Below, piece after piece: positions 20,893 to 43,230 of a stretch of DNA of 64,000 bases. Position numbers and translations under genes: made by a program. Under the pieces are notes generated by a model. It was not told where the DNA came from, made no database searches, and saw nothing but the letters and a program-made list of their open reading frames with translations. The DNA lies in IMG/VR virus record IMGVR_UViG_3300033066_002242, positions 31,556-95,555 of that record. One strand, 5' to 3'. Every line of letters starts with the position of its first letter. Position 1 is the first letter of the stretch. The DNA is from a virus (taxonomy: Duplodnaviria > Caudoviricetes).

Positions 20893-22722
20893 TCAGTACC
20901 TGCCGTTTTCGCCTTCACCGAAGGCCTTGCCGAGAATGTAGGGAGTAATAGGGTCAGTGGACCGAGTCGGAGACTCATGCGCCATGGCCGCTGCTTCTAT
21001 GATACTTGATTTTAGGTTAGACGACGCCAAACGGGATATCCAATTGGGGTCCAGCAGCTTGGATTGCTTCACGCCCGTGGCTATCGGGTCGACGATCATG
21101 CCGCTTTCGCTGATCGGAACCTCCGTAACACCTTTCTTATTCAGGTCCAGGATGTGGTACGCATCCAGCCGGGTGCCTGGCATGAGCTCCCCGATACGCC
21201 GGGACAGCACCTTACCGGCGGCGCGCTCGATGGGCACCATACGGTGGTCAGCATCCAGGATGTGCTGGATCTGGTTGACGTTGACCACGTCTCCCGGCAG
21301 GTAATCGCTGTCGCCGGGGTCGCGGATGGTCACGTACTTGGCCATGTTCTTGGCGATGACGTCGAAGTGCCGGGGGTCGTACCCTTGACCGTACACTTCC
21401 CGCATCTTCTCGGCCAGGTACTTGCGACCGGCGCCATGGCCGCGAAGCTCGACCAGGTGCTTGGGATTGGGGGTGCCTTCCGCCAGCTGCTGGCCAGCGT
21501 AGACCTCGTCTCCGTGCTTGACCAGGACGCCCTGGTGACGATCAACGAAGTGGCTGTGGTTGCCAATCCAGATATGAGAGTCGCCCAGGGCGGTCTTCTC
21601 GATCTTGGTGACCTTGCCTGGTACAGACGCCAAAGTGGCTTCATCCAGGAAGTTCTCCGGGATGGTCAGGATGTTACGGGCGGACTCCAAGGTGCCGGCC
21701 GTGCGCTTGACGCCGGAACCTGCCGTACCGCCTTGGTGCTTGGAGCCGATAACCGCCTGCGTCAGGCCTTCCGATATGGACTGGACACCGATGACGCCCA
21801 CGTTCTCGCCGATAGGAGGGAATTCTCCGCGGGAGTCATGGCCGTAGCACTTCTGACAAATGCCTTCCGGGGCCTCACAGGTCTGCGGGTTGCGCACGAC
21901 GACCATCTTCTTGCCGCTGTCCACCGCGTCCTTGTACTTGGCGTCGGTAAACACGGAGTCCGTGCCTGCTTCCACCATGCCGATGATCCGCTTCTTGTCA
22001 GAGATGGGGACATCGATGCCGTGGTGGGTCTTGCAGTCGTGGATCGTGATCACCTCATGAAATGCCGCCGGGATGATCTTCTTGAACAGCGCCCCTGGCT
22101 CCGAGGTGGCCATCTGTGTCTTGATGGTCGCCGCCCGGCCGCCGTAGGACATGGCCATGTGCTCTGCCGGGGATAGGCCCTCGGCAAAGGAGTGGCGAAT
22201 CGGCAGAGGGATGGGAGTGCCCTCAATGTCGATCGACATCATGGGGCTGAACGTACCCTGACCGAGTTGCATGGGGTTGCCGCGCGCGCCGGTCATCGCC
22301 ATAAGTCCCGCAGTGGACCCCTTGCCAACCATGTGCTTGAGGTTGATCTTCTGGGAGGTCGACACGTAGGAGGAGGCCACGTCTTCCACCATGGCGTTCC
22401 GCTGCGACTTGGAAAGCTTGGGGTTGTTGGAGACCTCATTGATCTTGTCCGCGAACTCTGCCAGCAGCACATGGCGTTCAGGAGAGTCGTTCTCGTAGTC
22501 CGTCAGCGGCGTGGAGAACCCGTTAACCGTGGCGGTGTGGAAGAACAAGTTGGACAACGCCTGGATGGACTCGTGCGCCTTGTCGCCGCCGTGCTTGATG
22601 CACAGGGACATGAGGTGCGCTACGCCAGGCTTGTCCAGCAGCATATTCGGGTCGTAGTACTTCTGCGCCTCTTCGGGCAACAGGCTTTTGACCAACAAGC
22701 TACCGGCAGTGGACATGTACAC
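20893..22722 (-). CDS. DNA-directed RNA polymerase beta' subunit, C-terminal half
   Basis: TGARGN, bridge helix EGLSPAEH..GGRAATIKT..TSEPG, Zn site DC...TCEAPEGICQKCYG and trigger loop GENVGVIGVQSISEGLTQ...H are all collinear with bacterial RpoC. Confidence 0.9.
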   Translation of the reverse strand: MYMSTAGSLLVKSLLPEEAQKYYDPNMLLDKPGVAHLMSLCIKHGGDKAHESIQALSNLFFHTATVNGFSTPLTDYENDSPERHVLLAEFADKINEVSNNPKLSKSQRNAMVEDVASSYVSTSQKINLKHMVGKGSTAGLMAMTGARGNPMQLGQGTFSPMMSIDIEGTPIPLPIRHSFAEGLSPAEHMAMSYGGRAATIKTQMATSEPGALFKKIIPAAFHEVITIHDCKTHHGIDVPISDKKRIIGMVEAGTDSVFTDAKYKDAVDSGKKMVVVRNPQTCEAPEGICQKCYGHDSRGEFPPIGENVGVIGVQSISEGLTQAVIGSKHQGGTAGSGVKRTAGTLESARNILTIPENFLDEATLASVPGKVTKIEKTALGDSHIWIGNHSHFVDRHQGVLVKHGDEVYAGQQLAEGTPNPKHLVELRGHGAGRKYLAEKMREVYGQGYDPRHFDVIAKNMAKYVTIRDPGDSDYLPGDVVNVNQIQHILDADHRMVPIERAAGKVLSRRIGELMPGTRLDAYHILDLNKKGVTEVPISESGMIVDPIATGVKQSKLLDPNWISRLASSNLKSSIIEAAAMAHESPTRSTDPITPYILGKAFGEGENGRY

Positions 22723-22725
22723 CTC

Positions 22726-23274
22726 TCAGCGCAGGAAGCCGCGGGAGAAGATGCCCTTGGCGCTTCCCAGGAAGTCACGGCCGCTCTGGGCGGTCTCCTG
22801 GAGGACCTGTTTCAGTCCTTCCGCGGTCTGGATGTGAGCGTGCAACGGGTCGGCCGGGTTGCTGCGAATCTGGTTCAGACGGTTGATCAAGGCATACTCG
22901 TGCTTGGGTGTCAGGCGCAGCGCTTTGGATGCTGCAACCGGATCGCCGTGAACCAAGTGGTGCAGTGCGCCGCCCACATCGGCACGGCTGTAGCCACCGT
23001 AGAACATACCCGCCGTGTCGAGGGCGTTCTCCACGCTCTTCATGGCGCCCAGACCCTTGTTGGCCACGTCGGATACCGCGGTGTGGGCGCTTTGCAAGCC
23101 AGCCAAGGTTTTTTCAGCCAAGGTAGGGGCAGGGATGGCAGACAGCTTGTACTTGTCCAGCGCACCGGCAGCCAGCATGCCGCCTCCTACGGCTCCCGTG
23201 GCTCCTATGGCTACGTTCCGGGCAGTGTTGTCGGCTGCGATCTTGCGCATACCGCTTTCGTAGATGTTGTCCAT
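22726..23274 (-). CDS. Putative cargo protein with KxA leader
   Basis: Starts MDNIYESGMRKIA, followed by VAIGATGAVGGGMLAAGA. Confidence 0.5.
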   Translation of the reverse strand: MDNIYESGMRKIAADNTARNVAIGATGAVGGGMLAAGALDKYKLSAIPAPTLAEKTLAGLQSAHTAVSDVANKGLGAMKSVENALDTAGMFYGGYSRADVGGALHHLVHGDPVAASKALRLTPKHEYALINRLNQIRSNPADPLHAHIQTAEGLKQVLQETAQSGRDFLGSAKGIFSRGFLR

Positions 23275-23301
23275 CGCTATGCTCTCAAGAGTAGGTGGTA
23301 T

Positions 23302-23811
23302 TCAAGGAGTGTACCGCAAACCGTGGCTGGCCAGTACCGGATACGGGAACTTCCAGAGGTCCGGAGGGGTGACCCGATGCTTATAGTAATCACGGAACAG
23401 CTTGGGGCCACCATGCTCCAGGCTCCAGGCGGTGTGCTCACTGCACCACCAATCTGAGGTGTCCTGCCAATCCCTGTGCAAGCTGACTCCGAACACTCCC
23501 TGCAGGTCATACTTCTTGCCTTCTTGGGATACTGCCGCTTCCTTGACAATCTCGGCGCTATACACCGGAAAGGCAACAATGGCCCAAGCGTTGCTGCGGG
23601 CCAGCAGCTCTGACAGCGGACTCTTGTGGACACCTTTCATCAAGGTGGCCTCTATGACCGTGTCCTCATCGAGCATCAGCGCCGTGTGGCTGCACCACCC
23701 CCAGGTGGCCGCCTTGATGGCCGTGGAGAAGGGGCCGCGTGTGTCCGCGAATACTACGTTGACGGTCTCCAGCGGCGGGAGAAGAAGCTTCAAGTCAGAT
23801 GTGGAAAACAT
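23302..23811 (-). CDS. Permuted papain-like (YiiX/YebB, NlpC/P60-related) cysteine hydrolase
   Basis: WCSHTAL (His), IEA, GKKYD, WWCSE (Cys), VTP in the permuted order. Confidence 0.8.
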   Translation of the reverse strand: MFSTSDLKLLLPPLETVNVVFADTRGPFSTAIKAATWGWCSHTALMLDEDTVIEATLMKGVHKSPLSELLARSNAWAIVAFPVYSAEIVKEAAVSQEGKKYDLQGVFGVSLHRDWQDTSDWWCSEHTAWSLEHGGPKLFRDYYKHRVTPPDLWKFPYPVLASHGLRYTP

Positions 23812-23835
23812 AGGTGTCTCCTACTGCGTAATTGG

Positions 23836-24429
23836 CTACTCTCCGAAAATAGGAGGCCACCCGGTGGTGAAATCGTAGGCTGCTGGATCATAAGATGCCT
23901 CCATCAACACCCGGTGTTCTTCTGCCGTATCAAAGTTGGCCGACCGGCGGGCCATAGCGGATCCAAAGATCTGCTGAACCAAGGTGGGGGTCAACGTAAC
24001 CTTGGAGCCGTCCATCAGCTTCCATTTCTTCCCTACAGGTAGTGCTCCCATCATGGTCGCGGAAGTCAGCCCCAGCTGATCAATCTTGGAAGGGGCATCC
24101 GAGTGAAACCAGTAAGGGCCTACCGGGAATCCTCCGTTGTTACGGACGTCATCCCGGTAGGCTTTGATCTCAGCCCACTTGGTCGCCCGCAGTTGAGCCA
24201 GAAGTTCCTGATTCGGCACCCATCGGCCCTCCACCAAGTGGTACGTCCAGTGAGGTTGACGGTCAGGCGTATACTGCAGGGTGACGCCGTCCTCCAGCAG
24301 TCGGTAGTTATAGGGTTGGAACTTGATATCTTCAAGTTCAGGGTGGGACGATACGTCCAGCAGACCCTCTGAGGGAAAGGCGTAGACATGGTTTCCCTGC
24401 GTCCCCTGAAACCCAAGATAGGCTGACAT
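23836..24429 (-). CDS. DUF4376-like tail fibre assembly/accessory protein
   Basis: KWAEIKAYRD..GGF..WFHSD..S..WKLMDGS..L..GWP pattern. Confidence 0.7.
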   Translation of the reverse strand: MSAYLGFQGTQGNHVYAFPSEGLLDVSSHPELEDIKFQPYNYRLLEDGVTLQYTPDRQPHWTYHLVEGRWVPNQELLAQLRATKWAEIKAYRDDVRNNGGFPVGPYWFHSDAPSKIDQLGLTSATMMGALPVGKKWKLMDGSKVTLTPTLVQQIFGSAMARRSANFDTAEEHRVLMEASYDPAAYDFTTGWPPIFGE

Positions 24430-24432
24430 GCC

Positions 24433-25854
24433 TTACTCCCAGCTGGCGTCGACGAAAACTCCGCCCCGAATGGTGGGGTAGGTAGCGGCTGCGCCAGCTG
24501 GAATACGTAGGATAATGTGGAAGTATTCCATCGGATGCACGGGCAGGGGCTGATCAAAGGTCTGGGAAATCCTACGAAGTTCCGCACCGACTACTGCCGT
24601 TGTTGGTACTGATTGAATACCGAGAAAACCACGGCGGGCTACCTTACCCGTCCCTGCCTCGATTGTAGCCAGAGATACTGCAGTACACCCCACTGCAAAT
24701 CCCCAGTGCAAAACGGTGGCTACCGTGGGGATCCCTGCAGCTACTGAGACAAACGCATCAATCGATATCCCCCGAACAATAAGCGTCCGGCCCATGTTAG
24801 TCAGGGAGGGAGTGGGTACTTGATATGCGAAGAGTGCGTAGTCTGTTTCCGCTGCTGCCAAGCCCACAAACAGGAAATTACCGCCCAGAGTAGTATACCC
24901 CGCCGCAGTATTGCTGAGGGACGCTGTAGCTGGGACTGCACTGTTTGCCCAGTTAGCTGTCATGCCCCCGGACCCGACACCTATGACATGTTGAATCCCG
25001 ACATCCCCCTGCAGGGCTGCGATATGCCGGACGTCTGAGTTGCGGTGGGCGCCCATCGTGGCCGATGTATACTTGGCTACGTACACCTTCTGTGCAGTAC
25101 TCAGCAGTGCGGTATTGTAAATGCGGAAAGCTATGGGAAAACTTTCCGAGGCGGCGGGACCGCTGGCATCGACAGGTGTAGCCAGTGAGGCAACAGGAAT
25201 CTCGTCAATGAAGAAGGTAATAGCGCCTCTCCCGACCACGATGACGTAGTCATGGAAGTCCTGAGGCGTACTCATGGGGATTACTGAAGTGACATTTTCA
25301 GCACCACCTTGGCTAATACTTACTCCACGCAGGGCACCGTCCGTACCGTACCGGAAGAACACACCCATGGTCGGTGCTGCTACAGCAGCTGATAGGAAAG
25401 CCCCTAGCTCCACCACGTTGTTAGTAATAGGAGCCTGATCCAGCTTGGCCCGAATGCCAAATATACGGTCGCACCCCTTCTCGACCTTAAAGTACCGGCT
25501 TGTACGGCACACAAGGTACGAACCGGAAGTCGTGTTACCCGCCCCATTCATAACCATGATATTAGCTGCTACGGTTTGGGCTGCCATGCCAGATGACATG
25601 TATCCCAAGTCGGAGGAACATGTCGAAGACGCCGCAAAGTTCTTGTCGAAGTCAATTACGACATTAGCCATACCCAGCAACCCTTGGCTGGAACCTGTAA
25701 TACTCCCAGTATTAGATGGGCTGCTGAGATCCGACTTTCCCACCAGGAACATGGCGCCGGCGTTGGTGCCGTCTGTGGGCGGCTGGACCTTCAACCGACC
25801 ATTGGCATCGACATCTGCAATATGCGTTCCACCAGCATCCGTAAGAAGAGCCAT
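24433..25854 (-). CDS. Tail fibre/appendage protein with lectin-like beta-sandwich
   Basis: Beta-rich; FHDYVIVV..ITFFID ConA-like strand pattern; more A/T-ending codons than its neighbours. Confidence 0.5.
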   Translation of the reverse strand: MALLTDAGGTHIADVDANGRLKVQPPTDGTNAGAMFLVGKSDLSSPSNTGSITGSSQGLLGMANVVIDFDKNFAASSTCSSDLGYMSSGMAAQTVAANIMVMNGAGNTTSGSYLVCRTSRYFKVEKGCDRIFGIRAKLDQAPITNNVVELGAFLSAAVAAPTMGVFFRYGTDGALRGVSISQGGAENVTSVIPMSTPQDFHDYVIVVGRGAITFFIDEIPVASLATPVDASGPAASESFPIAFRIYNTALLSTAQKVYVAKYTSATMGAHRNSDVRHIAALQGDVGIQHVIGVGSGGMTANWANSAVPATASLSNTAAGYTTLGGNFLFVGLAAAETDYALFAYQVPTPSLTNMGRTLIVRGISIDAFVSVAAGIPTVATVLHWGFAVGCTAVSLATIEAGTGKVARRGFLGIQSVPTTAVVGAELRRISQTFDQPLPVHPMEYFHIILRIPAGAAATYPTIRGGVFVDASWE

Positions 25855-25857
25855 GAT

Positions 25858-26187
25858 TTACCCCAGGGTGTAAGCGACCCGGAACTTACCGGATACAAAG
25901 TTAGGAAAAGCTGTAACGTAGAGGGTGAACTCCCCCGAACCAGGAGCAGCGCGGCATAGGAGAGTGTCCATTTCATTCTCATCCTGAGCACGACCCGTAG
26001 CTGCCTTTGCACTGTGCCCTACCAGGATGATAGAGGCGCCAGTAACGTCGACGTCTGTGATCGTGAAGGTCTTCTGCCGGGTTGCAGAGGCTCCAAAGTC
26101 AATCTCGACTTCTTTTACAGAGCCTCCTCCGACTTCAACCTCGACCAAAGACCCTGATACGGGATTCCGGCTAATGGCCTTGGTCAC
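25858..26187 (-). CDS. Small beta-rich virion appendage protein
   Basis: GTG start after GGAGAG; lies within the fibre block. Confidence 0.45.
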   Translation of the reverse strand: MTKAISRNPVSGSLVEVEVGGGSVKEVEIDFGASATRQKTFTITDVDVTGASIILVGHSAKAATGRAQDENEMDTLLCRAAPGSGEFTLYVTAFPNFVSGKFRVAYTLG

Positions 26188-26199
26188 TGGGTCTCTCCG

Positions 26200-26709
26200 T
26201 TACGCCAGCAGAATGCTGTCATCCGCTTCAAAGGACAGGGATGTAGCAGTGATAGCGCGGCCAATGAACTGGTGACGCTTGCCCGTACCGGTGACAGGAG
26301 TGGCCGTGATACCGCCAGGGGCGCTGGCAGACAGGAAGTACCTGGAATCCGGGGTCAAACCTGCCAAAGCTGTGCAGCGACCTTCGAAGTACACCAGCGC
26401 AGGCTGCCCTGACGACACGCTGTCCTGCACGAAGCCCACGGCGTCGTGGCCGGCAGCAGCAGCACTGGCCTTGGATACTTCCCCGGTAGCTCCGATATAC
26501 ACCATGTCTCCGGCAGTCAGTGCTTCCGAAGCGTTGCCGGTGTAGGTATCGGGGCCAACACCAGTAGGCATGACCGTCAGGTTCAGCTTGCCGTCCGTGT
26601 CCAGGGCAACGATTTTACCGGCATCACCGGCGCCTGCGCTGGATACTTGTCCAACGACTTCTTTAACGACGCCCGTGGCAGAGTCACGAGCAATATACTT
26701 GTCAACCAT
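26200..26709 (-). CDS. Head fibre/cement-like (beta-clip) protein
   Basis: ASEALTAGDMVYI..KASA..AVGFV..G..YFLS..G pattern. Confidence 0.55.
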   Translation of the reverse strand: MVDKYIARDSATGVVKEVVGQVSSAGAGDAGKIVALDTDGKLNLTVMPTGVGPDTYTGNASEALTAGDMVYIGATGEVSKASAAAAGHDAVGFVQDSVSSGQPALVYFEGRCTALAGLTPDSRYFLSASAPGGITATPVTGTGKRHQFIGRAITATSLSFEADDSILLA

Positions 26710-26718
26710 GATGATTCC

Positions 26719-27336
26719 TCACGCGAGATATATGGGCAGGGAGATGTCTACGTGGATTTTAGCCGAAAGAGACACCTTACCCAGAGTTTGTTGAAACACG
26801 GCAGGCACAGGCGATGCTTCCACCTGGCCTGCCCCTAAAAACAACGTAGTACCGATAGGCAGTACGATGCCCGGCAGGTATGCCATGCCGGACGTGACCA
26901 CCTTGATGTTCTCCCCGATCAGCGCCGAAGTCACTGCCAGCCCCACGGCTTCCCGCCCCGCCGCACTGCTATCCGCCAGGATAAAGGCCCCCAGAACGTT
27001 GCGGGCCACTGGCTGACCAGCGGTTATGTTCTGCGCCGCCGGACCCTCCGTCGTGATGTTGTCCCGGTTCTCGACGACGGTGCGGATGCCGATGTCCAAA
27101 GGGGCCGGCGTCGTCCACCCAAAACCGTGTTTTACCGAGTAAAACAGGGGGGAGACGACATTCACCCAGTACTCTAATACGCCTTCATCATCCGTGGCGG
27201 TCGGCGAAGGCAGAGGGTCGCCGTGCTCGTCGAAGACCAGGCCAGGAGTCGTACCGTCGGGAAGCAGAATGACCACGTCGCTGTTACGTGCCAACCAGCC
27301 GTTGGCGTGGCGCAGCTGCTGACTGAATCGGTACAT
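26719..27336 (-). CDS. Fibre-related protein with C-terminal beta-clip (paralogous to 26200-26709)
   Basis: AAQNITAGQPV..LADS..AVGLA..G pattern. Confidence 0.5.
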   Translation of the reverse strand: MYRFSQQLRHANGWLARNSDVVILLPDGTTPGLVFDEHGDPLPSPTATDDEGVLEYWVNVVSPLFYSVKHGFGWTTPAPLDIGIRTVVENRDNITTEGPAAQNITAGQPVARNVLGAFILADSSAAGREAVGLAVTSALIGENIKVVTSGMAYLPGIVLPIGTTLFLGAGQVEASPVPAVFQQTLGKVSLSAKIHVDISLPIYLA

Positions 27337-27339
27337 GGC

Positions 27340-27465
27340 CTACCTCGGGAATACTTGCCCTATAACAGGCCAGTTTACATTCAAACTGAGGGTAGTGATA
27401 TCCACCCAGTTCATTCTATAGCTGAGGGGCGCAATAGGCCCTGTGTCGTACTGTACCCACACCAT
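27340..27465 (-). CDS. 41-aa small ORF (MVWVQYDTG...GQVFPR)
   Basis: Fills the gap between its neighbours; GAGGTGAG RBS; below the ORF-track cutoff. Confidence 0.5.
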   Translation of the reverse strand: MVWVQYDTGPIAPLSYRMNWVDITTLSLNVNWPVIGQVFPR

Positions 27466-27472
27466 ACTCACC

Positions 27473-28351
27473 TCACATCCAGATCATAGCCATTGACGAA
27501 TAAGTCTGGGCTGCGGAGTCGCATCGCGTCACGCCGATGCCCAGGCCGAGGTAGTCATTTCCGGAAAACATAGCAGTGACAACCTGGCCAACCCCAAGAT
27601 TTGCCTGCGCAACGCCAACCGCGCATTTTGGAATCCACGAAACTCCGTCCGGGTTTATGACTGTCCCTGTGAAAAAAGGGCTGTTTGTCCCGAACGCAAC
27701 TGAGACGTTTGATGACAAGTTAAATGGAATAAAAAACATTCCGTTTGGCAGCGTTGTCAGTGTCGCATTCGTGTAGCTAGCAACTTTGCAGACAGACGGG
27801 TTTGCGGCAATTGGGTTGTACTGCACTACAAAACCAGCGCCTGTTGCATTCCCCGCACCATCTCGTGATCGCTCAACAACCAGTACAGACGCCTTGCTGT
27901 ATGAGTCCGCCGAGGCAGGTGCAAGAGCTAAGCATATCGCAGAGTTATCCGGACCAGAGGACGCATAGCTTGTTGTAGTTGTGGCTATCGTATTGCTCCA
28001 CGCGACGATAGCCGTTCGTGGAAATATTACTCCACCTACGTTGCCGCTGCCGTCTACGGTTTTACCTACCGTCAGGTACATCCCCGGATAAGATGCTGAA
28101 CCACTCGCGCCGTATTCAAATTTAAGGAACAGTGGATACGTTGCGTGCAGAGCGTCAGTAAATCGGTAGACCTCAAACCCCATTGCCACTGATGCTCCAA
28201 TCGGTCTTAGTACTGTTGACCAGTTAATCTCACCGGACTGGGTAACTTTTGTCATCAGGGCGGAAAACACCCCAGAAATCGTGCTGCCCCACGCACGAAA
28301 CTCGGCATCAGTTGTCGATGACAGGACTGCCGAAAAAGTTTGCTTGGCCAT
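27473..28351 (-). CDS. Ser/Thr/Gly-rich virion structural protein
   Basis: Beta-rich composition, lower GC, within the fibre block. Confidence 0.45.
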   Translation of the reverse strand: MAKQTFSAVLSSTTDAEFRAWGSTISGVFSALMTKVTQSGEINWSTVLRPIGASVAMGFEVYRFTDALHATYPLFLKFEYGASGSASYPGMYLTVGKTVDGSGNVGGVIFPRTAIVAWSNTIATTTTSYASSGPDNSAICLALAPASADSYSKASVLVVERSRDGAGNATGAGFVVQYNPIAANPSVCKVASYTNATLTTLPNGMFFIPFNLSSNVSVAFGTNSPFFTGTVINPDGVSWIPKCAVGVAQANLGVGQVVTAMFSGNDYLGLGIGVTRCDSAAQTYSSMAMIWM

Positions 28352-28357
28352 GGAAGG

Positions 28358-34695: not shown

Positions 34696-34707
34696 GGTGT
34701 TGCTCTC

Positions 34708-35184
34708 TTAGCTGAGTGGGTTGATGCGCCAGCCCACGGCCGCGCCAAGGAAGGTCGCCATGACGGCCACGCTGACGTCCAGGAAGTAGGGTTCGTCATG
34801 CCCTGCAATGGGGTAGCTGGCTACCAGCTCGACGTTATGCGCCTCCCAGGTGAATGTTGCCGGTGTGAAGATATGGGTGACGCCACTGCCTTCTACGGGA
34901 TTAGGGAACAGGGTGAGACGCACGCCTCCCATGGACGTGTCCACGGACCAGTTGCTGCTCTCCTCCAGGATGCGGTCCTCATTCGTGACCGGGTAGTCAC
35001 CGAAGATATCCGTGGCGTCTTGCTGAGTAATCTCTACCAGCTTGCCTGCGGTCACGGCCGCTTGCACGGTGACATCGGCGAACTGTGTGTCCGTCAGGAC
35101 AAACTTCTCCAGGTACTCCAGGAACAGGGCCCCGGAAAACAGGGTCAGTCCCGGTAGGTACGTGCATTGGACGTTATGGCTCAC
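34708..35184 (-). CDS. Hypothetical structural protein, first gene of the fibre operon
   Basis: GTG start after GAGGTG; acidic. Confidence 0.45.
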   Translation of the reverse strand: MSHNVQCTYLPGLTLFSGALFLEYLEKFVLTDTQFADVTVQAAVTAGKLVEITQQDATDIFGDYPVTNEDRILEESSNWSVDTSMGGVRLTLFPNPVEGSGVTHIFTPATFTWEAHNVELVASYPIAGHDEPYFLDVSVAVMATFLGAAVGWRINPLS

Positions 35185-35251
35185 GGCGGGGCACCTCGAT
35201 TGCTATGCCATGATTTTAGTCTGAAGCAGCCGTCTACGCCTACCATCTTCT

Positions 35252-35279
35252 CAATAGATTGCCTTCGGCGGGGTATAAG
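35252..35279 (+). promoter_or_regulatory. Putative early promoter CAAT-N16-GGTATAAG
   Basis: Same motif and spacing at 36242, 51852 and 59007; upstream of the DHH gene. Confidence 0.65.
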
Positions 35280-35320
35280 TACTTTAGAGACAACATCGTC
35301 TTTTTTATTGGAGCAATGTT

Positions 35321-36193
35321 ATGAGCAAAATCCTTTGTGTATTTCACGGCAAATGTGCCGATGGCCTCGGCGCGTTGTGGGCAGTGATTCAGCGCTTCGG
35401 TGCTGAAAACGTGGAGCCCTTCGCCGGGTTCTACGGACGTCCCGCCCCGGACGTCGCCGGCCGCAAGGTCGTGATGGTGGACTTTTCTTATAGCCGGGAG
35501 GTCATGGAAGACCTCGTCGCGAAGGCGGAGTCCTTCATCTGCCTCGACCACCACGCCAGCGCCAGGGATGCGCTGGCCGGGGTGCCGGGGTGCCACTTCG
35601 ACATGACACGCTCCGGCGCGGTCATGGCCTGGGAGCAATTCATGCCTTACCAGCCGTGCCCTCTGGTCCTCAAATATATCGGGGATCGCGACATCTGGGC
35701 ATGGAAGCTTCCCAACAGCAGGGAGGTGTCCGAGGTGATGCAATGGGACTTTTCCCTCCCCATTGAGGAGCAGCTGGCGCAGGTCACTGCAAACCAGATC
35801 CAGCTGGAAAGGGATTTCCCGTCCGTAGTTCTGACGGGAACGGCCATCCGGACAGCCACCGAGCGCCTGGTGAAGGCGCATGCCGGCAGCTGGTTCTGGG
35901 TGACGCTGAAGGGCGGGAAGAAAATCCCCGCCTGCTTCTGCCACCCGGTACTGGCATCGGAGACAGGAAACGTGCTGGCCGCGATGCCGGAGAACCCGGA
36001 AGGAGTCTCCGTCTGCCTGTCAGCAGGCCACGACGGCAAGTACGCCTTGTCGTTCCGGGCGGTGAACGGCACGGCCAAGGACCTGGCTCTGGCGTACGGC
36101 GGCGGGGGTCACCCCAATGCCGCCGGAGCCGGGGTGGACTTGGAGGGCTTCACTGCTCTCCTCGCCACTCGGGAGGCGCGGCCCGAGGAGTAA
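35321..36193 (+). CDS. DHH/DHHA1 family phosphoesterase (NrnB-like)
   Basis: HGKCADG, MVDFS, LDHH, GGGGHPNAAG motifs. Confidence 0.85.
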   Translation: MSKILCVFHGKCADGLGALWAVIQRFGAENVEPFAGFYGRPAPDVAGRKVVMVDFSYSREVMEDLVAKAESFICLDHHASARDALAGVPGCHFDMTRSGAVMAWEQFMPYQPCPLVLKYIGDRDIWAWKLPNSREVSEVMQWDFSLPIEEQLAQVTANQIQLERDFPSVVLTGTAIRTATERLVKAHAGSWFWVTLKGGKKIPACFCHPVLASETGNVLAAMPENPEGVSVCLSAGHDGKYALSFRAVNGTAKDLALAYGGGGHPNAAGAGVDLEGFTALLATREARPEE

Positions 36194-36199
36194 AGCGGT

Positions 36200-36238
36200 A
36201 AAGGAAGGCGGATCCCTCGGGGTCTTCCTCTTCCTTTA
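36200..36238 (+). terminator. Putative terminator hairpin
   Basis: AAAGGAAG...CTTCCTTT imperfect stem after the DHH stop codon. Confidence 0.5.
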
Positions 36239-36241
36239 GTT

Positions 36242-36269
36242 CAATTTACGTTGCTCCGATTGGTATAAG
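36242..36269 (+). promoter_or_regulatory. Putative early promoter CAAT-N16-GGTATAAG
   Basis: Motif match with identical spacing. Confidence 0.65.
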
Positions 36270-36321
36270 TTTTATAGGGAGAGGAATAGTCCAAACCCGA
36301 TAACAAGAAATTGGAGCAGTC

Positions 36322-36450
36322 ATGCACACCTATCTCATCACTACTGTGACAGGATTTGTTGTTAAGCTTTTTGCAGACGATTACCGCGAGGCCGTGAAAA
36401 CGGCCATCGAACGCGGCGACACCCCCGCGGAGGTCACGCAAATCGCGTGA
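36322..36450 (+). CDS. 42-aa small early protein (MHTYLITTVTG...)
   Basis: GGAG RBS, downstream of the promoter motif, followed by the hairpin CAGGCCCC-tc-GGGGCCTG. Confidence 0.55.
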   Translation: MHTYLITTVTGFVVKLFADDYREAVKTAIERGDTPAEVTQIA

Positions 36451-36513
36451 GCCTTCGCAAAAAGACAGGCCCCTCGGGGCCTGCTCTCAACCTTTTTTAG
36501 CTGGAGAAATGAC

Positions 36514-36996
36514 ATGACCTTATTCGGAATTCCTGCCTATCAAGCGTGGCTGCTGATGGGCCTGGCCTGCTTCTGCATTGCCAGCGTTGCCACGACCCAC
36601 ATGATGTGTGATGCAGAGGCGGTAATGCTGGCATCCCAGCGCAGCAACCACACCCTGGGAAGATGGGAGGCAGCGGTCAGCACTGCCGGAGTCATCCTCA
36701 TCACCCTGGCGGCAGGTCCCTTGGGAGTCATAGGGCTTCTAAACCCGCGACTGTGGAGGGCTGCTCCTACTCTGTTCCTGGGTCGGGAAGATGGAGACTC
36801 CGAGTTCTCATCCTTGATGAAGACCTGGGTGGTTGTCCGCAACTCCGATAACCAGTACGTCCGGGATGACGGTACCCTGTCGTTCCGTGTCCGCAGCGCC
36901 CGGGTCATGCCCTTGGCAGAAGCCAAGCGCAGCTTCCCGGACTTCAAGGCTATCCCCTTGTCCTACGTGGTCACCCTCCACCCCGACTATCTGTAG
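36514..36996 (+). CDS. Membrane protein (2 predicted TM segments)
   Basis: Two hydrophobic stretches; GGAG RBS; terminator-like CGGGAG..CTCCCG-T7 at about 37012-37035. Confidence 0.55.
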   Translation: MTLFGIPAYQAWLLMGLACFCIASVATTHMMCDAEAVMLASQRSNHTLGRWEAAVSTAGVILITLAAGPLGVIGLLNPRLWRAAPTLFLGREDGDSEFSSLMKTWVVVRNSDNQYVRDDGTLSFRVRSARVMPLAEAKRSFPDFKAIPLSYVVTLHPDYL

Positions 36997-37077
36997 TCGG
37001 GTCCTTGCCTTCCGGGAGTTGCCTCCCGTTTTTTTAGCGTAAACTCCCTGAAGTGCTTATCTGCGGAATGATCCCTC

Positions 37078-38463
37078 ATGAATCCCTATCTCGAAAACAT
37101 GCGTCAGATGCAAAAGAGCGCATCCCTGATGGACCTGCTGGCGTCTGCCCCCCACGCCATGGCGATAGGCACCGCAATCCACGTAGGGCAGAACGCTGCG
37201 GTTCGCAGCGCCTTGCGGGGTACCCTGGGAGTGCAGGGGGTCGGGCAGGCTGCAGAGAGGCTGGCTCAGAAACAGGTTCCCGGCATGGGTAGTCTGGGCA
37301 ACTTGGGCAATAGCCCTGTCTTAAAAGCCGTGTCCAGGTTGAAAGATGCCAAGCCCGTGGACGCGGCGGAAGCCCTCTCCACCAACTTCTACCGAGGGCT
37401 GCATGACATACACACTTCTCCAGTGTCACAGCACCTGTCTGCCTTCGCCAGCGGCATGACCGTTCCGGAGGTGCACATTCTGCACCAGGAGGCCCACGCG
37501 ATGGGCGCTAAGCTAAGGGGTGCTCTTGGAGGCAAGGGGCTGTCTGCTGCCAACCTGAGCACAGGGGAGCAGCAAGTCATGCACCACGTCCTTAATGGCA
37601 ACTACTTGCAGGCTCACGACCTCATGCACCAGGCCCTGAACAACTCCGGAGTCAAAGACGCAGGACTGGCGACAGCCAAGGCTCTGGAAGAGCACACCGG
37701 CATTCCCCTGCACGCCGCTTTATCAGACCCGGGGGCGTCTCGTATGCACCTCTACCGTCTGCAAAAAGCCGCGCGCAGCCCTAGAAACTGGGTAACCTCC
37801 AACCTCCTGCCACACTTATCCAGATTCAAACCTGCAGAGTCCCTGTCAGGCATTGCAGGATCCAGAGGAGGCAGGCAGGTAGACACCGCCCTGAGCGGAG
37901 CGGCAGGGGCGGCTGTAATCGGCGTTGCAGAGCCCTTGGCTGGAGTCATTAACGGCGCCAAGCACCTGGCAGTATCCACGTCTCCTCGCGTGGGTGCGCT
38001 ATCCGCAGCGGCAAAACTCAGGGCGGCAGGAGAGGTGCAGAAAGGCACGCAGATGGCAGCTGCAGGAGGGGTGGGAGGCAACATGGCCCGGTCCGCCAGA
38101 GAACTGTTTGGCAGTCCCGTCATCCACGGACTGCAAGGTCAAGTCCGAGAGATGACGGCGCTCTCCAACAACTTCTCCGCACACCTGAGCACCGCGAAGG
38201 CTCCCCTACGCTTCCCGCAGAAGGAACCTGTCAGCCTGCAAGACGCCGCGGACGCCGGCAAGGCACTGCTGGGCAAGGCCAAGGTAAAAGCCCAGGCAGG
38301 TGCAGAGGCTCTGCAAGCCGGAGCCAAGACCGTAATGGATAAAGCGGAGGCCGCATCAAGGTACACCAGCGCCAAGGCAGACGCCTTGCACTCCGCTACG
38401 GAACCTGCCCGGAAAGCCTTGGAGACTATCCGGGCGCGGACTTCCTCATACGGAGCTTCGTAG
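37078..38463 (+). CDS. Ala/Gly-rich putative cargo protein with KxA leader (orphan on plus strand)
   Basis: Starts MNPYLENMRQMQKSA; overlaps the 3' end of the RNAP gene convergently. Confidence 0.55.
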   Translation: MNPYLENMRQMQKSASLMDLLASAPHAMAIGTAIHVGQNAAVRSALRGTLGVQGVGQAAERLAQKQVPGMGSLGNLGNSPVLKAVSRLKDAKPVDAAEALSTNFYRGLHDIHTSPVSQHLSAFASGMTVPEVHILHQEAHAMGAKLRGALGGKGLSAANLSTGEQQVMHHVLNGNYLQAHDLMHQALNNSGVKDAGLATAKALEEHTGIPLHAALSDPGASRMHLYRLQKAARSPRNWVTSNLLPHLSRFKPAESLSGIAGSRGGRQVDTALSGAAGAAVIGVAEPLAGVINGAKHLAVSTSPRVGALSAAAKLRAAGEVQKGTQMAAAGGVGGNMARSARELFGSPVIHGLQGQVREMTALSNNFSAHLSTAKAPLRFPQKEPVSLQDAADAGKALLGKAKVKAQAGAEALQAGAKTVMDKAEAASRYTSAKADALHSATEPARKALETIRARTSSYGAS

Positions 38464-41400
38464 CGACGTACCAGTACCCGTCTCCGGGTTGGACGTAAAG
38501 TCCCCGATCATCGATGTGAACTCCGTCCTGGGCAGGAACTGCTCCACCCAGGAGTCCTCTCCCTGCCCCTTCTGAACCCTGACCGGGAATGTCTTGGGGT
38601 CGCCTTCTGCGTGATTGACGTCTACGACAGGAGACATCTCTGCCTTCTTGCCGTGACCGCTGATGACCACCTCCGTACTGGCGGATATCTTGCCGGACTT
38701 CAGTGCCTCTAGTGCCTCATGCTCGCTGTGGAATGTGACAGTGGGCACTGTCTCGTCCTTCTTCGACAGGAACACGCTGCCCAGGATAGCCTCATGGCCA
38801 GGGGCAAACATGGAAGCCCCGTACCCCTTGCGCACGTCGTTGAGGTGCCGCATAGGCAGCATCTTGTCCTTGACCTCCTGGATGGCCTCGGGAGTCATCG
38901 GCAAGTGCATCGTCATGGCATCGCCGTCGAAGTCGGCCGCAAACGCCGGCAAGTGTAGCGGGTTCAAACCGATCGTGCTTTCGTCCGTGGGCACCGGGTA
39001 TACGCCCATCTCATTGGTGCGCAGCATGGTAGGCGCACGGTTGATGATGATCGGTATTTCCTTGATCAGCCGGTTGAACACCGCTGTAGCCAGCCGGTCG
39101 CGCTTGGTGTATGAGTCCAGGGCCTCCCCGGTATGCAGGCCTTGCTTGGCCAGCGCACGCAGGATGTGATACTTGTACAGCACCCACAGCTGCTCCACCG
39201 GGATACGCGCCTCATTGAACCCTACGTCCGGGGCTGCGTAGATGGTCGCCCGTCCCGAGAAGTCCTGCTTGCGGGCCAGCAACCGGTCGTGGAACACCCC
39301 GGTCTTGGGTCCGCCTTCCCCGGCGATCTGCCGGATGAATCCCTTCAGCGGCTTCTTGGTGCCGATGTTGTCTCCCAGGCCCATGATCGCCGCCGCGCCC
39401 CGGTAAAGGTCGCCGCGTGTCTTGGTCAGCATGTCAGGCGTCAACTCATCCTTGGTCTTCTTCAGCGTCTTGCTGACCAGGATGTGGTCGTTGTACAGCT
39501 GGTTTACGTCCGCAAAGTGCAGCGCGTTGCCACCCATATTGGTGAAGGGGCGCATCACCGGCGGGATTACCGGGATGTGGTTCAGGATGTAGGCGTCTGC
39601 AGGACTGTCGAAGCCCGCGTGCTGTAACCCTCGCAGGTACTTGGCCTGCTTGATGTCGTCGTTGCGAGCCGACGCAGACTTGGAGGACGTGGCAGACTTG
39701 ACGGCCGCAGGGAGAGCCTCTGCTACCGAGATGTTGTCCAGCAACTCCCGGAACGCTTCGCCACCCACCTTGATCTTGGCATCGTCGTACTGCTCATCAG
39801 CCGCCTTTTTATGGATGCCTGCGCCGGAAGCCTTGAGGTGAAGGTCCTTGATCTTCTTCTGGGAAGCCGTGTCGAACAGGCCATAGTGGCCGTCGCCCAA
39901 CTTCTGCACCCCGTACGCGCCTTCCGTGATCTTGTCGAACTCATCGGCGCTCAGCTTGAGCAAGGACTTGACCGGCATCTCAAAGGTCGGGTTGACGATG
40001 GGTTCCGCCAGCTTGTAGTGGGTCCACTTCGTACCCTCCGGGCCGCCAGTCATCACCGGGTCGAACATGCCGCCCTTTTCCGGGCGCAAGGTGCGCGCCA
40101 CCAGGCGACCTTCATCCACCGCACCGTTGCTCATCTCCAGTACCTTGGAGTCCGTCATCGGCGCCAGGGAAATCTTGTCGTCACTGCGGCGCACATCGAT
40201 GCCGGATCCCTTCAGGTAGTTAAAGAACTTCTCGGTGGCAAACGTGGTCTTGGGCTTGGGCAAGGGGTCGCCGTTCTGGAAGGCACGCCAGAAGTCTTCG
40301 TTCTTCTCTGCCTTGATCGTCGACATCTCCTGCAGGTTCTTGCGGGCATCGCTGCCCAGCAAGCCGAGGAATTCCATGTATGCGGTGCGCTTCGATCCTT
40401 CGTCGCCGCCCTTGGCAGGTTGCAGCCAGGCGTCGTACCCGCCCTCTACGTTGCGCGCCGAGTAGTTGGAGTCCGTGGTCTTGTAGGTCTTGACGAAGTA
40501 CTGCGGCCCGCCGAAAACCTTGGGCAGCTCCTTGCCGCTCACCGGGTCGATCAGGGTGTCGTAGCCTTTGATGCCTTCCGCTGCCATCTCTGCCTTGATC
40601 TTCTTCAGGGCGCCGCCGGCATGGGCGAAGTTGGTCACCCGGTACTGCTTGCCCGTCTTGGCGGCAATGCGGCCTGCCCCGGTCTCCAATATCTGGCCGA
40701 GGTTGATGCGGGAGGTGACGGAGGCCGGGTTCAGGACAATGTCCACCGGCTCTCCGGTTTCCTTGTTGTAGGGGACCAGCTTGTCCGGCAGGATCTTGGA
40801 CACCACGCCCTTGTTGCCATGGTACCCCGTCAGCTTGTCCCCGACCTCCAGAGGCTTGACCGACTTGACCAGCACCCTGATCTCCTTACTGTCGACGTTG
40901 ACGTCGACCACGGTGCCAGGCTCATGGTGCTTCCAGTACTCCACGACCTGCAGGAACGGGGACACCAGGTGCTTGCTGACGCGGTGGTACAGCACGTCCG
41001 TGGCGCTGATCTGGCGAGGCTCCAGCAACGCCCACACCGGGTCACCGTAGTTCAGCGTCTCTCCCTTCTTGATGAAGCCGCGGGAGTCCAGCTTGGCCAA
41101 CTGGCCGGAGGTCAGCAGCGATGGGAAGTTCTTGCGGAACAGCGCCCGGTCGGTCTTAGTGTCCTGCTTCAACGTGTAGTCGTACTTGTAGGCGTGCAGG
41201 CTGGACAGCTTGTCCGCAGCCGTCTGGCTGATGACCAGGCCGTCTTCATGGTTGAAGCCGTGGTAAGGCATGTACGCCGATACCAGGTTGCGGCCCAGGG
41301 ACAGTTCGCCATTGCGGGTATAGTTGTTGTCGTAGAGCACCTGGCCCTTGGCGACGGCGTCTCCTTCCTGTACGAGGGAGGTCTCATCGTCGCGGAACCC

Positions 41401-43230
41401 CTTCTGGTTGTAGGGCATATCGACGATACGGGCGACCTTGTGGATCTTGCCGTCGTCTCCCTTGATCTCCATGCCCTCGTCCGTGATCTTGTGGATCTTG
41501 CCGGATGCCGGACTGACAGTAGACAGCATCTGGCCGTAGAGCTTGGTGAAGGTAACTGGGGCGCCAGACTTGGACTCATGCGCCACCGTCGCCACCAGCG
41601 GGGCTTCCCGGTCTTTCAGGGACAGCGCCTGGACAATGGCCTTGCCCGCCATGGTCAGTCGACCCGGATGGTTATGGTTCATGAACGGGACCATGTTGGT
41701 GGTCACCGTGAACATGGTGCGAGGGTCGGAAACCCAGTACTGCACCTTGCCGACAGGCGTGTCCTTCAGCGTACCCTTGTCCTGGGCCTGCACCATGCCA
41801 TTACGCTCACTGCCCTTGAAGCCGATCACCGACTCCATGATCTGGCGCGCTGACAAGTGCACGACACCGCCCTTGCCATCCGTGAACTGGCCGTACAGGT
41901 TGCCCTGATCATCACGTGCGGCGTTCATGGCAAAGCGCAGGTCGACGCCCACCGTGGACGACTCCGGGGTACGGTTGGGGTCAAGGATAGTCAGGTGAGT
42001 CGGGTCAATGTTCCGGGTGCGGACGTTGTTGGCCTTCTGCAGGTCAATACCTCCTTCTCCTTCACCCAGCACCGTTGCCTTGGCGACGTTCTCCAGGCTC
42101 TCCACCGGGTTGGTTTCCGATGGCGCCTGGGACAGCGGGGACTTGGTCAGGAAGTTCTGCATGACCTTGTTGTAGGGCTTGGAGACGACGATCTTGCGCA
42201 ACTCCGGCGTCTTCTTGTCCAGCACGGCCTTGTCCAGCGCCCACTTGATCTTGCGGGAGGCGTCCGAGACATTTTCATGCTCCCTGCCCTGCTGGAAGCG
42301 GCGGGAGATCATGTCCGGGTAGCCGACCACGCGCTTGAACATCAGGGAATCCCGATTGTCCTCTTCACGTTTGCCCATATGGATGTTGATCAGGTTGCCG
42401 GCAATACGCAGCAGGGATTCCCCGTCCAGGTGTGACACGCCGCGACCCAGGGTAACGGCCGTACCGTCCACGTCCAGGGTGCGGGCAGCCAGGCCTTGGC
42501 GGATGCCTTCCAGCTTCTCGGCCAGCGCCGGGTCGGGCTTCTCCTTGCGCATGGCGTAGGGGGCCACCTTGCGGTACAGCTTGCCAGCCACGCTATCGGT
42601 ATCCGAGGCAGACGCCAGGTCCTTGTCCCAGATCGCGCTGGGGATGTAGGCAGCGGCCTGCTGCTTGTCGAAGCCATACACGCTGTGCAGCACCCAGATC
42701 AGCGGCACGTTGATGTCGCCACTGCTCAGGATCAGGGTTTGCTTGCGGGGGTCCAGCGACACTTCCAGGGAGCCGCCGCCCGAGTTGATCTGCGCCATGA
42801 CCGCGCCGTTACTGCGCCGGCGGTGGTAGACGCCTTCCTTGAGTTGCAGCAGGTGCGAGATGACGTAGTTGTTGCCCTTATAGACCAGGGTATGTTTGCC
42901 GGTCATGTAGAAGCAGTCGGCCAGGGAGAAGTTCTGGATTTCATCCACAACCTTGCCGGTAGCCTTGTCCGTGATCGTCAGGTGCCCCTTGATCGGAAAC
43001 GTCAGGGAGCGGGAGGTCATGATCGCCTCGCGCTCGTCTTTTTCCGTGTAAGGCTTCTCCTCGGCGCGCAGGTTCGAGACGTCGATGCGGTACTTGGCGT
43101 TCTCGATGGGGAACTGCTTGGCAATCCCGTCCATCAGCGCCTTGTTGGTCTCCTCCAGCGTCTTGCGGGGAGAGGAGATCAGGTAGGAGAGAGGCCGACC
43201 GTCAGTCGCCTTCAGTGTGGTATTCGGCAT
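38446..43230 (-). CDS. DNA-directed RNA polymerase: beta subunit fused to N-terminal half of beta'
   Basis: Beta motifs: QFPI, TPESSTVG, GFNHEDG, GDKLTGYHGNKG, NPASVTSRINLGQ. Beta' motifs follow: RPEKGGMFD, IPVIPPVMRP, RLLARKQDFSGR, NRAPT and catalytic ADFDGD. Confidence 0.95.
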   Translation of the reverse strand: MPNTTLKATDGRPLSYLISSPRKTLEETNKALMDGIAKQFPIENAKYRIDVSNLRAEEKPYTEKDEREAIMTSRSLTFPIKGHLTITDKATGKVVDEIQNFSLADCFYMTGKHTLVYKGNNYVISHLLQLKEGVYHRRRSNGAVMAQINSGGGSLEVSLDPRKQTLILSSGDINVPLIWVLHSVYGFDKQQAAAYIPSAIWDKDLASASDTDSVAGKLYRKVAPYAMRKEKPDPALAEKLEGIRQGLAARTLDVDGTAVTLGRGVSHLDGESLLRIAGNLINIHMGKREEDNRDSLMFKRVVGYPDMISRRFQQGREHENVSDASRKIKWALDKAVLDKKTPELRKIVVSKPYNKVMQNFLTKSPLSQAPSETNPVESLENVAKATVLGEGEGGIDLQKANNVRTRNIDPTHLTILDPNRTPESSTVGVDLRFAMNAARDDQGNLYGQFTDGKGGVVHLSARQIMESVIGFKGSERNGMVQAQDKGTLKDTPVGKVQYWVSDPRTMFTVTTNMVPFMNHNHPGRLTMAGKAIVQALSLKDREAPLVATVAHESKSGAPVTFTKLYGQMLSTVSPASGKIHKITDEGMEIKGDDGKIHKVARIVDMPYNQKGFRDDETSLVQEGDAVAKGQVLYDNNYTRNGELSLGRNLVSAYMPYHGFNHEDGLVISQTAADKLSSLHAYKYDYTLKQDTKTDRALFRKNFPSLLTSGQLAKLDSRGFIKKGETLNYGDPVWALLEPRQISATDVLYHRVSKHLVSPFLQVVEYWKHHEPGTVVDVNVDSKEIRVLVKSVKPLEVGDKLTGYHGNKGVVSKILPDKLVPYNKETGEPVDIVLNPASVTSRINLGQILETGAGRIAAKTGKQYRVTNFAHAGGALKKIKAEMAAEGIKGYDTLIDPVSGKELPKVFGGPQYFVKTYKTTDSNYSARNVEGGYDAWLQPAKGGDEGSKRTAYMEFLGLLGSDARKNLQEMSTIKAEKNEDFWRAFQNGDPLPKPKTTFATEKFFNYLKGSGIDVRRSDDKISLAPMTDSKVLEMSNGAVDEGRLVARTLRPEKGGMFDPVMTGGPEGTKWTHYKLAEPIVNPTFEMPVKSLLKLSADEFDKITEGAYGVQKLGDGHYGLFDTASQKKIKDLHLKASGAGIHKKAADEQYDDAKIKVGGEAFRELLDNISVAEALPAAVKSATSSKSASARNDDIKQAKYLRGLQHAGFDSPADAYILNHIPVIPPVMRPFTNMGGNALHFADVNQLYNDHILVSKTLKKTKDELTPDMLTKTRGDLYRGAAAIMGLGDNIGTKKPLKGFIRQIAGEGGPKTGVFHDRLLARKQDFSGRATIYAAPDVGFNEARIPVEQLWVLYKYHILRALAKQGLHTGEALDSYTKRDRLATAVFNRLIKEIPIIINRAPTMLRTNEMGVYPVPTDESTIGLNPLHLPAFAADFDGDAMTMHLPMTPEAIQEVKDKMLPMRHLNDVRKGYGASMFAPGHEAILGSVFLSKKDETVPTVTFHSEHEALEALKSGKISASTEVVISGHGKKAEMSPVVDVNHAEGDPKTFPVRVQKGQGEDSWVEQFLPRTEFTSMIGDFTSNPETGTGTSLRSSV

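Follow-up and report, generated by a model that had tools for sequence, protein, structure and literature searches.

The window analysed here is 64,000 nucleotides of tailed-phage DNA (Duplodnaviria; Caudoviricetes), the last 64 kb of a 95.5-kb contig in IMG/VR (record IMGVR_UViG_3300033066_002242, positions 31,556 to 95,555) to which CheckV gives a completeness of 66%. It holds two genes from which, with a probability of about 0.75, the phage makes the entire catalytic core of its own multisubunit RNA polymerase (RNAP), an enzyme of bacterial type that would be derived from a single chain and is probably packaged in the virion. The larger gene (38446..43230, minus strand, ATG start) encodes 1594 amino acids (aa): the whole beta subunit joined in frame to beta' through its catalytic DFDGD motif, as is seen from Pfam, from matches in the Protein Data Bank (PDB) and from the translation itself. 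The smaller one (20893..22722, minus strand, GTG start with an ATG two codons in) encodes the rest of RpoC in 609 aa, beginning at STAGSLL, and lies 15.7 kb away. This arrangement had been described, with a distance of about 16 kb, in a first-pass annotation made from the sequence of the window, and it stands. Judged from motif and domain content, the two chains amount to complete beta and beta' minus ~15 N-terminal residues of beta' and its zinc-binding domain.

Composition of the two chains

In the large chain, Pfam finds Rpb2_6 at residues 618-933 (E 2.7e-51), Rpb1_1 at 1019-1270 and Rpb1_2 at 1382-1455. Against PDB sequences it matches bacterial beta over ~85-1036 (best E 1e-58) and the N-terminal halves of beta' over ~1143-1528 (E 1e-37), the cyanobacterial gamma subunit 8syi_D included. 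The strings quoted in the first-pass annotation, EKFFNYLKGSGIDV, KISLAPM, RPEKGGMFD and DFDGD, are all found in its translation, and STAGSLL is found in that of the small chain. The beta portion takes up residues 1 to ~1018 (40177..43230, minus strand), where an alignment to 8syi_C pairs 85-1008 with 87-1049. It has no large lineage-specific inserts when mapped with MAFFT against Salmonella rpoB, and it contains the motifs HGNKG (~803-808) and NPASVTSRINLGQ (~834-846, of the form NP..V.SR.N.GQ). At the junction of beta and beta' (40147..40191, minus strand), GSGIDV is followed by a linker of ~5 residues, RRSDD, and then by KISLAPMTD, the counterpart of E. coli beta' residues ~17-25, with ~15 N-terminal residues of beta' lost. 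An AlphaFold2 model of residues 931-1594, built on a 27-sequence alignment, has a mean predicted local distance difference test score (pLDDT) of 76.6 and a predicted template modelling score of 0.71, and is confident across the junction (pLDDT 83-94). Its top Foldseek matches are whole gamma chains from Synechocystis and Synechococcus (8gzh_D, 9dvs_D; E ~1e-28). Shortly after the junction, the N-terminal zinc-binding domain of beta' (four Cys, E. coli ~70-88) is deleted, in the window and in all aligned sequences of the clade of fused phage polymerases described below; in the window, GGMFDPVMTGGPEG directly joins TKWTHYKLAEP at the deletion site (40006..40068, minus strand).

The N-terminal part of beta' (38656..40146, minus strand; matched to the gamma chain 8syi_D over 178-549) covers the same stretch as the gamma subunit (RpoC1) of cyanobacteria. 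It holds the clamp, the lid, the clamp helices that form the sigma-binding coiled coil, the rudder and the catalytic double-psi barrel, and its translation is collinear with E. coli along the lid, the rudder and the clamp helices. Both catalytic barrels are on one chain, as had been proposed, marked by Rpb2_6 with HGNKG and by Rpb1_2 with AADFDGD. The latter motif (residues 1431-1437; 38920..38940, minus strand) keeps the three Asp and has Ala in place of an Asn that is nearly universal elsewhere. In E. coli this Asn, beta' N458 of NADFDGD, contacts the ribose of the nucleoside triphosphate (NTP) and helps to discriminate against deoxy-NTPs. Most members of the clade with split chains have A or G at this position (locus L019 keeps N); N is the residue in bacteria, in mReC-like loci and in the majority of single-chain relatives. 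The large chain ends ~90 residues past DFDGD, the rest of beta' being the separate gene. Its last ~70 residues (1526-1594; 38449..38655, minus strand) form a tail beyond the homologous end of the chain, which is confined to the closest relatives, P0003 and P0004 (72-81% identity), and absent from the cultured relatives, Salmonella phage Arash and the Vibrio phages; the tail is predicted to be disordered (pLDDT ~25, in a part of the model that the multiple sequence alignment does not cover).

The small chain matches Pfam Rpb1_5 (E 8e-19) and, in the PDB, the C-terminal halves of beta' (E 7e-42), with alignments that reach Thermus beta' 1179-1397 and Clostridium thermocellum beta' (8i23_D) 613-1096. 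It runs from the TTxG-equivalent, STAGSLL, to the natural C-terminus, and a conserved bridge helix (GARG...), a trigger loop with its His and region H are all present along the way. The trigger loop is without the SI3 insert, at a chain length of 609 aa vs ~1320 aa in cyanobacterial RpoC2. Residue 26 pairs with residue 12 of the cyanobacterial beta'/RpoC2 chain (8syi_Z). The break in beta' thus lies just before the TTxGR-equivalent and ~15 residues or less from the cyanobacterial break, as placed by the 8syi_D/8syi_Z coordinates and a MAFFT map, and the whole-chain gamma matches of the model bear out the earlier view that beta' is broken at the cyanobacterial site.

The first-pass annotation had seen no alpha or omega gene in the window. 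With the search extended to the whole 95.5-kb contig, neither the alpha N-terminal domain (PF01000) nor omega (PF01192) is found; since the contig is only ~66% complete, missing genes could escape it. The alpha N-terminal domain is likewise absent from five complete relatives, which cover the three chain architectures of the clade (Arash, Vibrio phage D69 and three IMG/VR contigs, 185-210 kb long and with a completeness rating of 100%). Each of the five has one or more genes for a Sigma70_r2 protein, two in the case of Arash. The earlier gene list had the RNAP chains right and did not list two further genes that bear on transcription. One is a sigma-70-family factor of 307 aa with regions 2 and 4 (51972..52895, minus strand; Pfam Sigma70_r2 and r4 above cut-off), which matches PHROG 351, a sigma factor family (E 2e-29), and aligns to Arash gp196 by tblastn at 33% identity (E 4e-27); on this similarity it is the orthologue of gp196. 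For gp10, the sigma factor found in Arash virions, no orthologue was found in the ~66% complete contig (best E 0.06). A scan for sigma-70-type promoters around the RNAP genes gave no enrichment. The other gene lies ~27 kb before the window (G000:C1:4586-4738), where a small open reading frame (ORF; open frame 172 aa) encodes an alpha C-terminal domain (alpha-CTD; PF03118, 51.9 bits, E 5.5e-15). As none of the five complete relatives has one, the free alpha-CTD is particular to the phage of the window.

Relatives and the history of the chain boundaries

The layout is not peculiar to the window. Salmonella phage Arash (OQ632216) carries the same two chains as gp206 (1525 aa) and gp216 (606 aa); the large chain of the window is 47% identical to gp206 over 95% of its length, and the small chain 53% identical to gp216 over 99%. 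The same pair is found in Vibrio phages D69, D148 and D181 (OZ195729, OZ196545 and OZ196140). Across Arash and the Vibrio phages, identities to the window chains are 45-53%, the chains are ~1525 aa and ~606-610 aa long with identical boundaries, and the catalytic motif is AADYDGD or AADFDGD. The order of portal, small ORF and fusion gene is conserved in Arash and D69, and the helicase gp217 that follows the C-terminal beta' gene in Arash is absent from the contig of the window. In the records of Arash and the Vibrio phages, each window chain finds a match at one place, which, with these chains as the query, points to a single enzyme set per genome. The layout is also seen at the IMG/VR loci L016, L018 and L019 and in many metagenomic clusters: ~37 protein clusters contain fused forms of 1500-1600 aa, the closest being 81% and 72% identical to the window chain. 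In D148 and D181 the fused gene has an extra homing-endonuclease insertion. As an example, in D181 (L071:4524-5435) the gene is interrupted between beta residues 518 and 520 by a group I intron (RF00028; 100.7 bits, E 1.4e-26), with a homing-endonuclease ORF after it. D69, the sister of D181, is without the intron, and the D181 record lists the gene pieces as separate hypothetical proteins.

As to whether such an architecture is already described in characterised phages, the layout is present in Arash, and we found no paper that names the fusion. The Arash paper labels gp206 as 'subunit beta' and mentions no fusion (Yousefi et al. 2023, PMC10585845). In the open literature, to which our search was confined with subscription-only papers outside its scope, no description of a fused bacterial-type phage RNAP of this kind was found (Arash, mReC, a jumbo-phage RNAP review, Iyer et al. 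and an ocean protein survey); a fusion is described there only for the crAss-like enzyme, which is very diverged. Annotations can be corrected accordingly: Arash gp206, labelled 'beta', and the Vibrio genes, labelled 'hypothetical', are both beta/beta' fusions.

For a wider view, 65 IMG/VR loci were fetched and their ORFs mapped onto tblastn matches. The fused clade has three architectures and one common junction. In the first, everything is on a single chain, which measures 2016-2142 aa or, where there are insertions, as much as 2649 aa, and full-length beta' in one chain is found in lineages L023-L055. The second is the two-chain form of the window (beta plus the N-terminal part of beta', then the C-terminal part), and in the third a further cut gives three chains (beta with a first N-terminal piece of beta', a second piece, and the C-terminal part), which lie 60 bp to 8 kb apart. 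Many relatives of ~1113-1165 aa span only residues 1-1128 of the window chain, that is beta and the first ~110 residues of beta'. The single-chain relatives at L023, L031, L036 and L044 are 30-33% identical to the window and resemble it in the junction, in the collinear order and in lacking the zinc-binding domain. Single-chain members are absent from the GenBank phage set used. Distant, mReC-like loci (24-28% identity) have separate genes for beta' (~1000 aa) and beta (~1370-1400 aa), sizes that agree with those in the mReC phages of Weinheimer & Aylward. The small chain was searched against 1.8 billion cluster representatives, and among the 150 nearest matches 50 are stand-alone C-terminal beta' proteins with the same start site, 32 have C-terminal extensions, 22 are full fusions of at least 1900 aa, and 39 have varied N-terminal extensions. 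P0138 (1096 aa) and ~31 other clusters start at the split site and carry C-terminal extensions of 255 to ~800 aa. One such extension is a GNAT acetyltransferase domain, and in Arash it is a helicase gene that abuts the C-terminal beta' gene.

Two trees were made from concatenated beta and beta': a FastTree tree of 50 rows and 2044 columns (42 fused-clade rows plus outgroups), and an IQ-TREE tree of 31 rows and 1414 columns under LG+G4. Both are rooted on Salmonella and Staphylococcus rpoBC, the only bacteria included and with no cyanobacterial sequence, and both use LG-type models without mixtures, with composition heterogeneity flagged. The fused clade has 100% support in both, apart from the bacteria and from the mReC-like loci L058-L067, which form their own clade with 100% support. 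This phylogeny against cellular and phage RNAPs had been suggested earlier as a check and, together with the alignments, it upholds the claim of a distinct phage lineage collinear with the bacterial enzyme. A recent capture from a host is rejected, with ~25% identity to any bacterial RNAP and a phage clade that falls outside Salmonella and Staphylococcus rpoBC, and membership of the mReC clade is rejected by the separate clade, the AADFDGD motif and the fused genes.

Within the fused clade there are four basal lineages in an unresolved polytomy. Three are single-chain throughout (2016-2649 aa). All split forms belong to the fourth, which has 100% support and in which the three-piece clade is sister to the two-piece group of the window, Arash and the Vibrio phages. 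The outgroups, bacteria and mReC-like phages, all have unsplit beta', and for this reason the most parsimonious history would be one fusion on the stem, one cut after the barrel and later a second cut. The first-pass annotation had seen in the window a re-partition of separate beta and beta'; the trees suggest instead that it is probably a secondary split of an ancestral single-chain fusion. A seemingly independent split at L056 is rejected: three in-frame TGA with a TAA stop mark it as a TGA-recoded single chain. This locus (L056:9968-16030, on an IMG/VR contig of 210,208 bp that CheckV rates at 100%) suggests a TGA-recoded phage with a code like 4 or 25.

It is hardly tenable that mis-assembly, a frameshift, an unrecognised intron or a split intein has produced a spurious fusion or split and that the mature proteins are an ordinary beta and beta'. 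Mobile elements do invade these genes, as the group I intron of D181 and the inteins in several single-chain relatives attest, and the idea is reasonable to that extent. Against it, the junction is in frame and, in the MAFFT map, common to all 42 fused-clade rows, which come from independent samples and isolates, and peptides cover 100% of Arash gp206 (PMC10585845). The two RNAP genes are separated by 15.7 kb that include tail genes, a search with Rfam yields no intron, either in the window or where nine loci are split, and the 609-aa chain begins with extein-homologous sequence that leaves no room for a C-intein. A hidden intron or split intein joining the two chains is rejected on the Rfam result and on the lack of an intein half at either terminus. 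Nor do the gaps between split pieces hold homing endonucleases (Pfam, ten gap ORFs). With no introns at the split sites and gap ORFs that are not endonucleases, the splits are read as real gene boundaries. An assembly artefact, named earlier as what would undo the finding, is therefore already refuted as far as sequence data allow.

Long single-chain relatives contain LAGLIDADG inteins. P0150 (2510 aa) and P0185 (1121 aa) have LAGLIDADG/Intein_splicing inteins, that of P0150 shortly past the catalytic barrel and near the split site of the window lineage. Insertions are also present in loci L042/L045, L050, L051 and L055, the one in L042 directly after DFDGD.

Mode of action, packaging and comparison with other polymerases

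The enzyme would work as follows. [quoted passage not shown] The covalent tether between beta and beta' may take over part of the assembly role of alpha2, and phage sigma-70-family factors would give promoter recognition. An ancestral single chain of ~2050 aa would have been cut once, at an inter-domain loop that cyanobacteria and phiKZ/AR9 also use. By analogy to Arash, enzyme and sigma would be made late from the morphogenesis block, packaged and injected, and early transcription would then be independent of host RNAP.

That the polymerase is packaged, as first proposed, is plausible from what is found in Arash, where gp206, gp216 and the sigma factor gp10 are among the most abundant virion proteins. 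In sucrose-gradient virions gp206 is covered to 100%, with 128 unique peptides, and its 3516 spectra exceed those of any other protein; gp216 ranks fifth with 1210, and gp10 has 467 (PMC10585845). Several points weigh against this and against the wider reading of an autonomous, single-chain-derived enzyme. The same Arash preparation gave 116 'structural' proteins, ribonucleotide reductases and RNA ligases included, and its authors allow for carry-over of proteins abundant in infection (PMC10585845). The third of the genome that is missing could hold a second RNAP set, an alpha-like scaffold diverged beyond the reach of Pfam, or a virion sigma, and the phage sigma could serve the host core polymerase instead. 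The Asn to Ala change and the loss of the zinc-binding domain could each reduce or alter activity. The single-chain ancestry, finally, is suggested by outgroup comparison and parsimony over a clade whose base is a polytomy.

Carry-over leads to an explanation that is unlikely and still has to be taken seriously: the enzyme is real and acts as a non-virion middle or late polymerase, like the non-virion RNAP of phiKZ, and its detection in Arash particles comes from the lysate. The 116 proteins scored as 'structural' stand against 272 annotated features and include clearly metabolic enzymes, the virions were purified on one sucrose gradient (0-45%), and this alternative is stated by the authors themselves (PMC10585845). 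However, the spectra of gp206 and gp216 are comparable to those of the major capsid protein (PMC10585845), and the placement of the RNAP next to the portal is conserved. Moreover, only one RNAP set per complete genome is found with the window chains as the query, and a late-only enzyme would leave the early genes without a transcriber unless host RNAP served them. A rather improbable explanation is that the phage core recruits host alpha2, and perhaps omega, for its assembly, so that the true enzyme is a phage/host hybrid. To our knowledge, all cellular multisubunit RNAPs need an alpha-like dimer as the platform of their assembly; the only enzymes known to do without it are those of phiKZ and AR9, both very diverged and sigma-less. 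The window enzyme is far closer to bacterial RNAP than these are (PHROG E 8e-64 vs 9e-29), and the free alpha-CTD module on the contig hints that alpha-type functions matter to this phage. On the other side, the cores of phiKZ and AR9 function without alpha or omega (PMC7598289), and at ~25% identity to any host subunit conserved docking surfaces for alpha would be unlikely. The covalent tether would remove part of the need for a scaffold, and a packaged hybrid would require host alpha inside the capsid. Natural rpoB-rpoC fusions such as that of Helicobacter work, and an engineered one, by Severinov et al. in 1997, was reportedly functional.

A more general proposition can be put forward tentatively, somewhat short of an even chance. 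A sigma-dependent bacterial-type core would be viable without alpha or omega, whether as one chain of ~2050 aa or cut at arbitrary points into two or three; the tether would have replaced alpha2, and the re-cutting would have been neutral, possibly seeded by introns or inteins. In the branch of the window, the loss of the sugar-sensing Asn and of the zinc-binding domain may reflect altered substrate or template selectivity in an early polymerase delivered by the virion.

The enzyme combines known kinds: it is fused as in Helicobacter, split as in cyanobacteria and alpha-less as in phiKZ. Helicobacter and Wolbachia have natural rpoB-rpoC fusions with full-length beta', alpha2, omega and the zinc-binding domain, and use them for cellular housekeeping. 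In these, as in engineered E. coli tethers and in the window, the C-terminus of beta continues in frame into the N-terminus of beta', which is possible because the two termini neighbour each other in the enzyme. The window chain, unlike them, has neither full-length beta' nor the zinc-binding domain, and alpha and omega are not encoded on the contig. In cyanobacteria and plastids beta' is broken in the same loop after the catalytic barrel, but cyanobacteria have a separate beta, a very large SI3 in RpoC2, and alpha and omega present.

The enzymes of phiKZ and AR9 are likewise phage-encoded and without alpha or omega, and their virion version transcribes early genes (PMC7598289). The first-pass annotation held that they are split differently. 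This is true for beta, which is in 2-3 pieces and never fused to beta', and does not hold for beta', whose break after the barrel lies at the same place in phiKZ and AR9 (Sokolova et al. 2020, PMC7598289). They differ further in having no sigma-70, two paralogous sets and a far lower similarity to bacteria. Phages of the mReC group are, like the window, medium-to-large uncultured tailed phages with a bacterial-like, deep-branching RNAP (Weinheimer & Aylward 2020, PMC7481178). Their genes are separate (beta ~1000-1560 aa, beta' ~900-1300 aa), and the survey required NADxDGD and at least 800 aa for each (PMC7481178); the mReC-like loci L058-L067 differ from the window in having beta' before beta and in their 24-28% identity. 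Arash and the Vibrio phages share with the window the chain boundaries, the order of portal, small ORF and fusion gene, and the lack of alpha, and Arash also shares the synteny of sigma and helicases. The window differs from them in the 15.7-kb spacer with its tail-sheath module, the extra disordered tail of ~70 aa and the missing gp217 helicase. In the uncultured single-chain phage polymerases the whole core is one polypeptide, most keep NADFDGD, and some contain LAGLIDADG inteins.

What is new is a monophyletic clade with one junction, loss of the zinc-binding domain and one-, two- and three-chain forms, whose sequences are public and of which one member has virion proteomics; the interest is carried more by this clade-wide picture than by the window. 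The clade aligns easily with bacterial RNAP (E 1e-58) and keeps sigma-70 and the clamp helices, yet is without alpha and omega. One-, two- and three-chain versions of one core make a natural experiment on how assembly platforms and subunit boundaries evolve. Biochemistry and cryo-electron microscopy could start from cultured phages, namely Arash, with Salmonella Typhimurium ATCC 14028 as its host, and those of Vibrio, and a compact bacterial-type polymerase made from one or two genes could be a useful tool. If packaging holds, the clade would add another solution for host-independent early transcription beside N4, phiKZ, crAss-like phages and P23-45.

Gene neighbourhood

The first-pass annotation had placed both genes among co-oriented portal and head genes, and this context is confirmed, with the portal upstream, tail genes in between and a head-protease-like gene downstream. 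The portal gene (43588..45327, minus strand; PHROG portal E 7e-10, 42% identity to Arash portal gp204) is directly upstream of the large-chain gene in the same orientation. A co-oriented small ORF of 129 aa (43202-43591) bridges the two and overlaps both. The spacer between the RNAP genes (22726-38445, 15.7 kb) contains the tail sheath (32032-34695), a 1224-aa protein, tail proteins and three plus-strand genes, one of which is a DHH phosphoesterase. Elsewhere the spacer is 0.6 kb (Vibrio D69), 0.8-1.5 kb (L019 and L016) or 4.8 kb (Arash), and the site is one that accepts insertions or rearrangements. The small RNAP gene abuts its neighbours by 3-4 nt. After it come homologues of Arash structural proteins and the head-protease-like gene (14424-15908).

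Between the sigma gene and the portal-RNAP block lie two plus-strand helicase genes, of the SNF2 family (48373-50298) and of an XPD/Rad3-like type (50300-51868), for which Pfam gives SNF2-rel_dom, Helicase_C_2 and ResIII across the pair. Their orthologues are Arash gp198 and gp197, in synteny, and gp197 is detected in the virion preparation (PMC10585845). Iyer et al. noted an SNF2 helicase linked to the RNAP genes in phiKZ-like phages. The two helicases may be candidate transcription accessory factors. Within the tail and head block, a 169-aa ORF (23302-23811, minus strand) matches an enoyl-CoA hydratase/crotonase-like PHROG (E 8e-25), a fold that is unusual amid structural genes.

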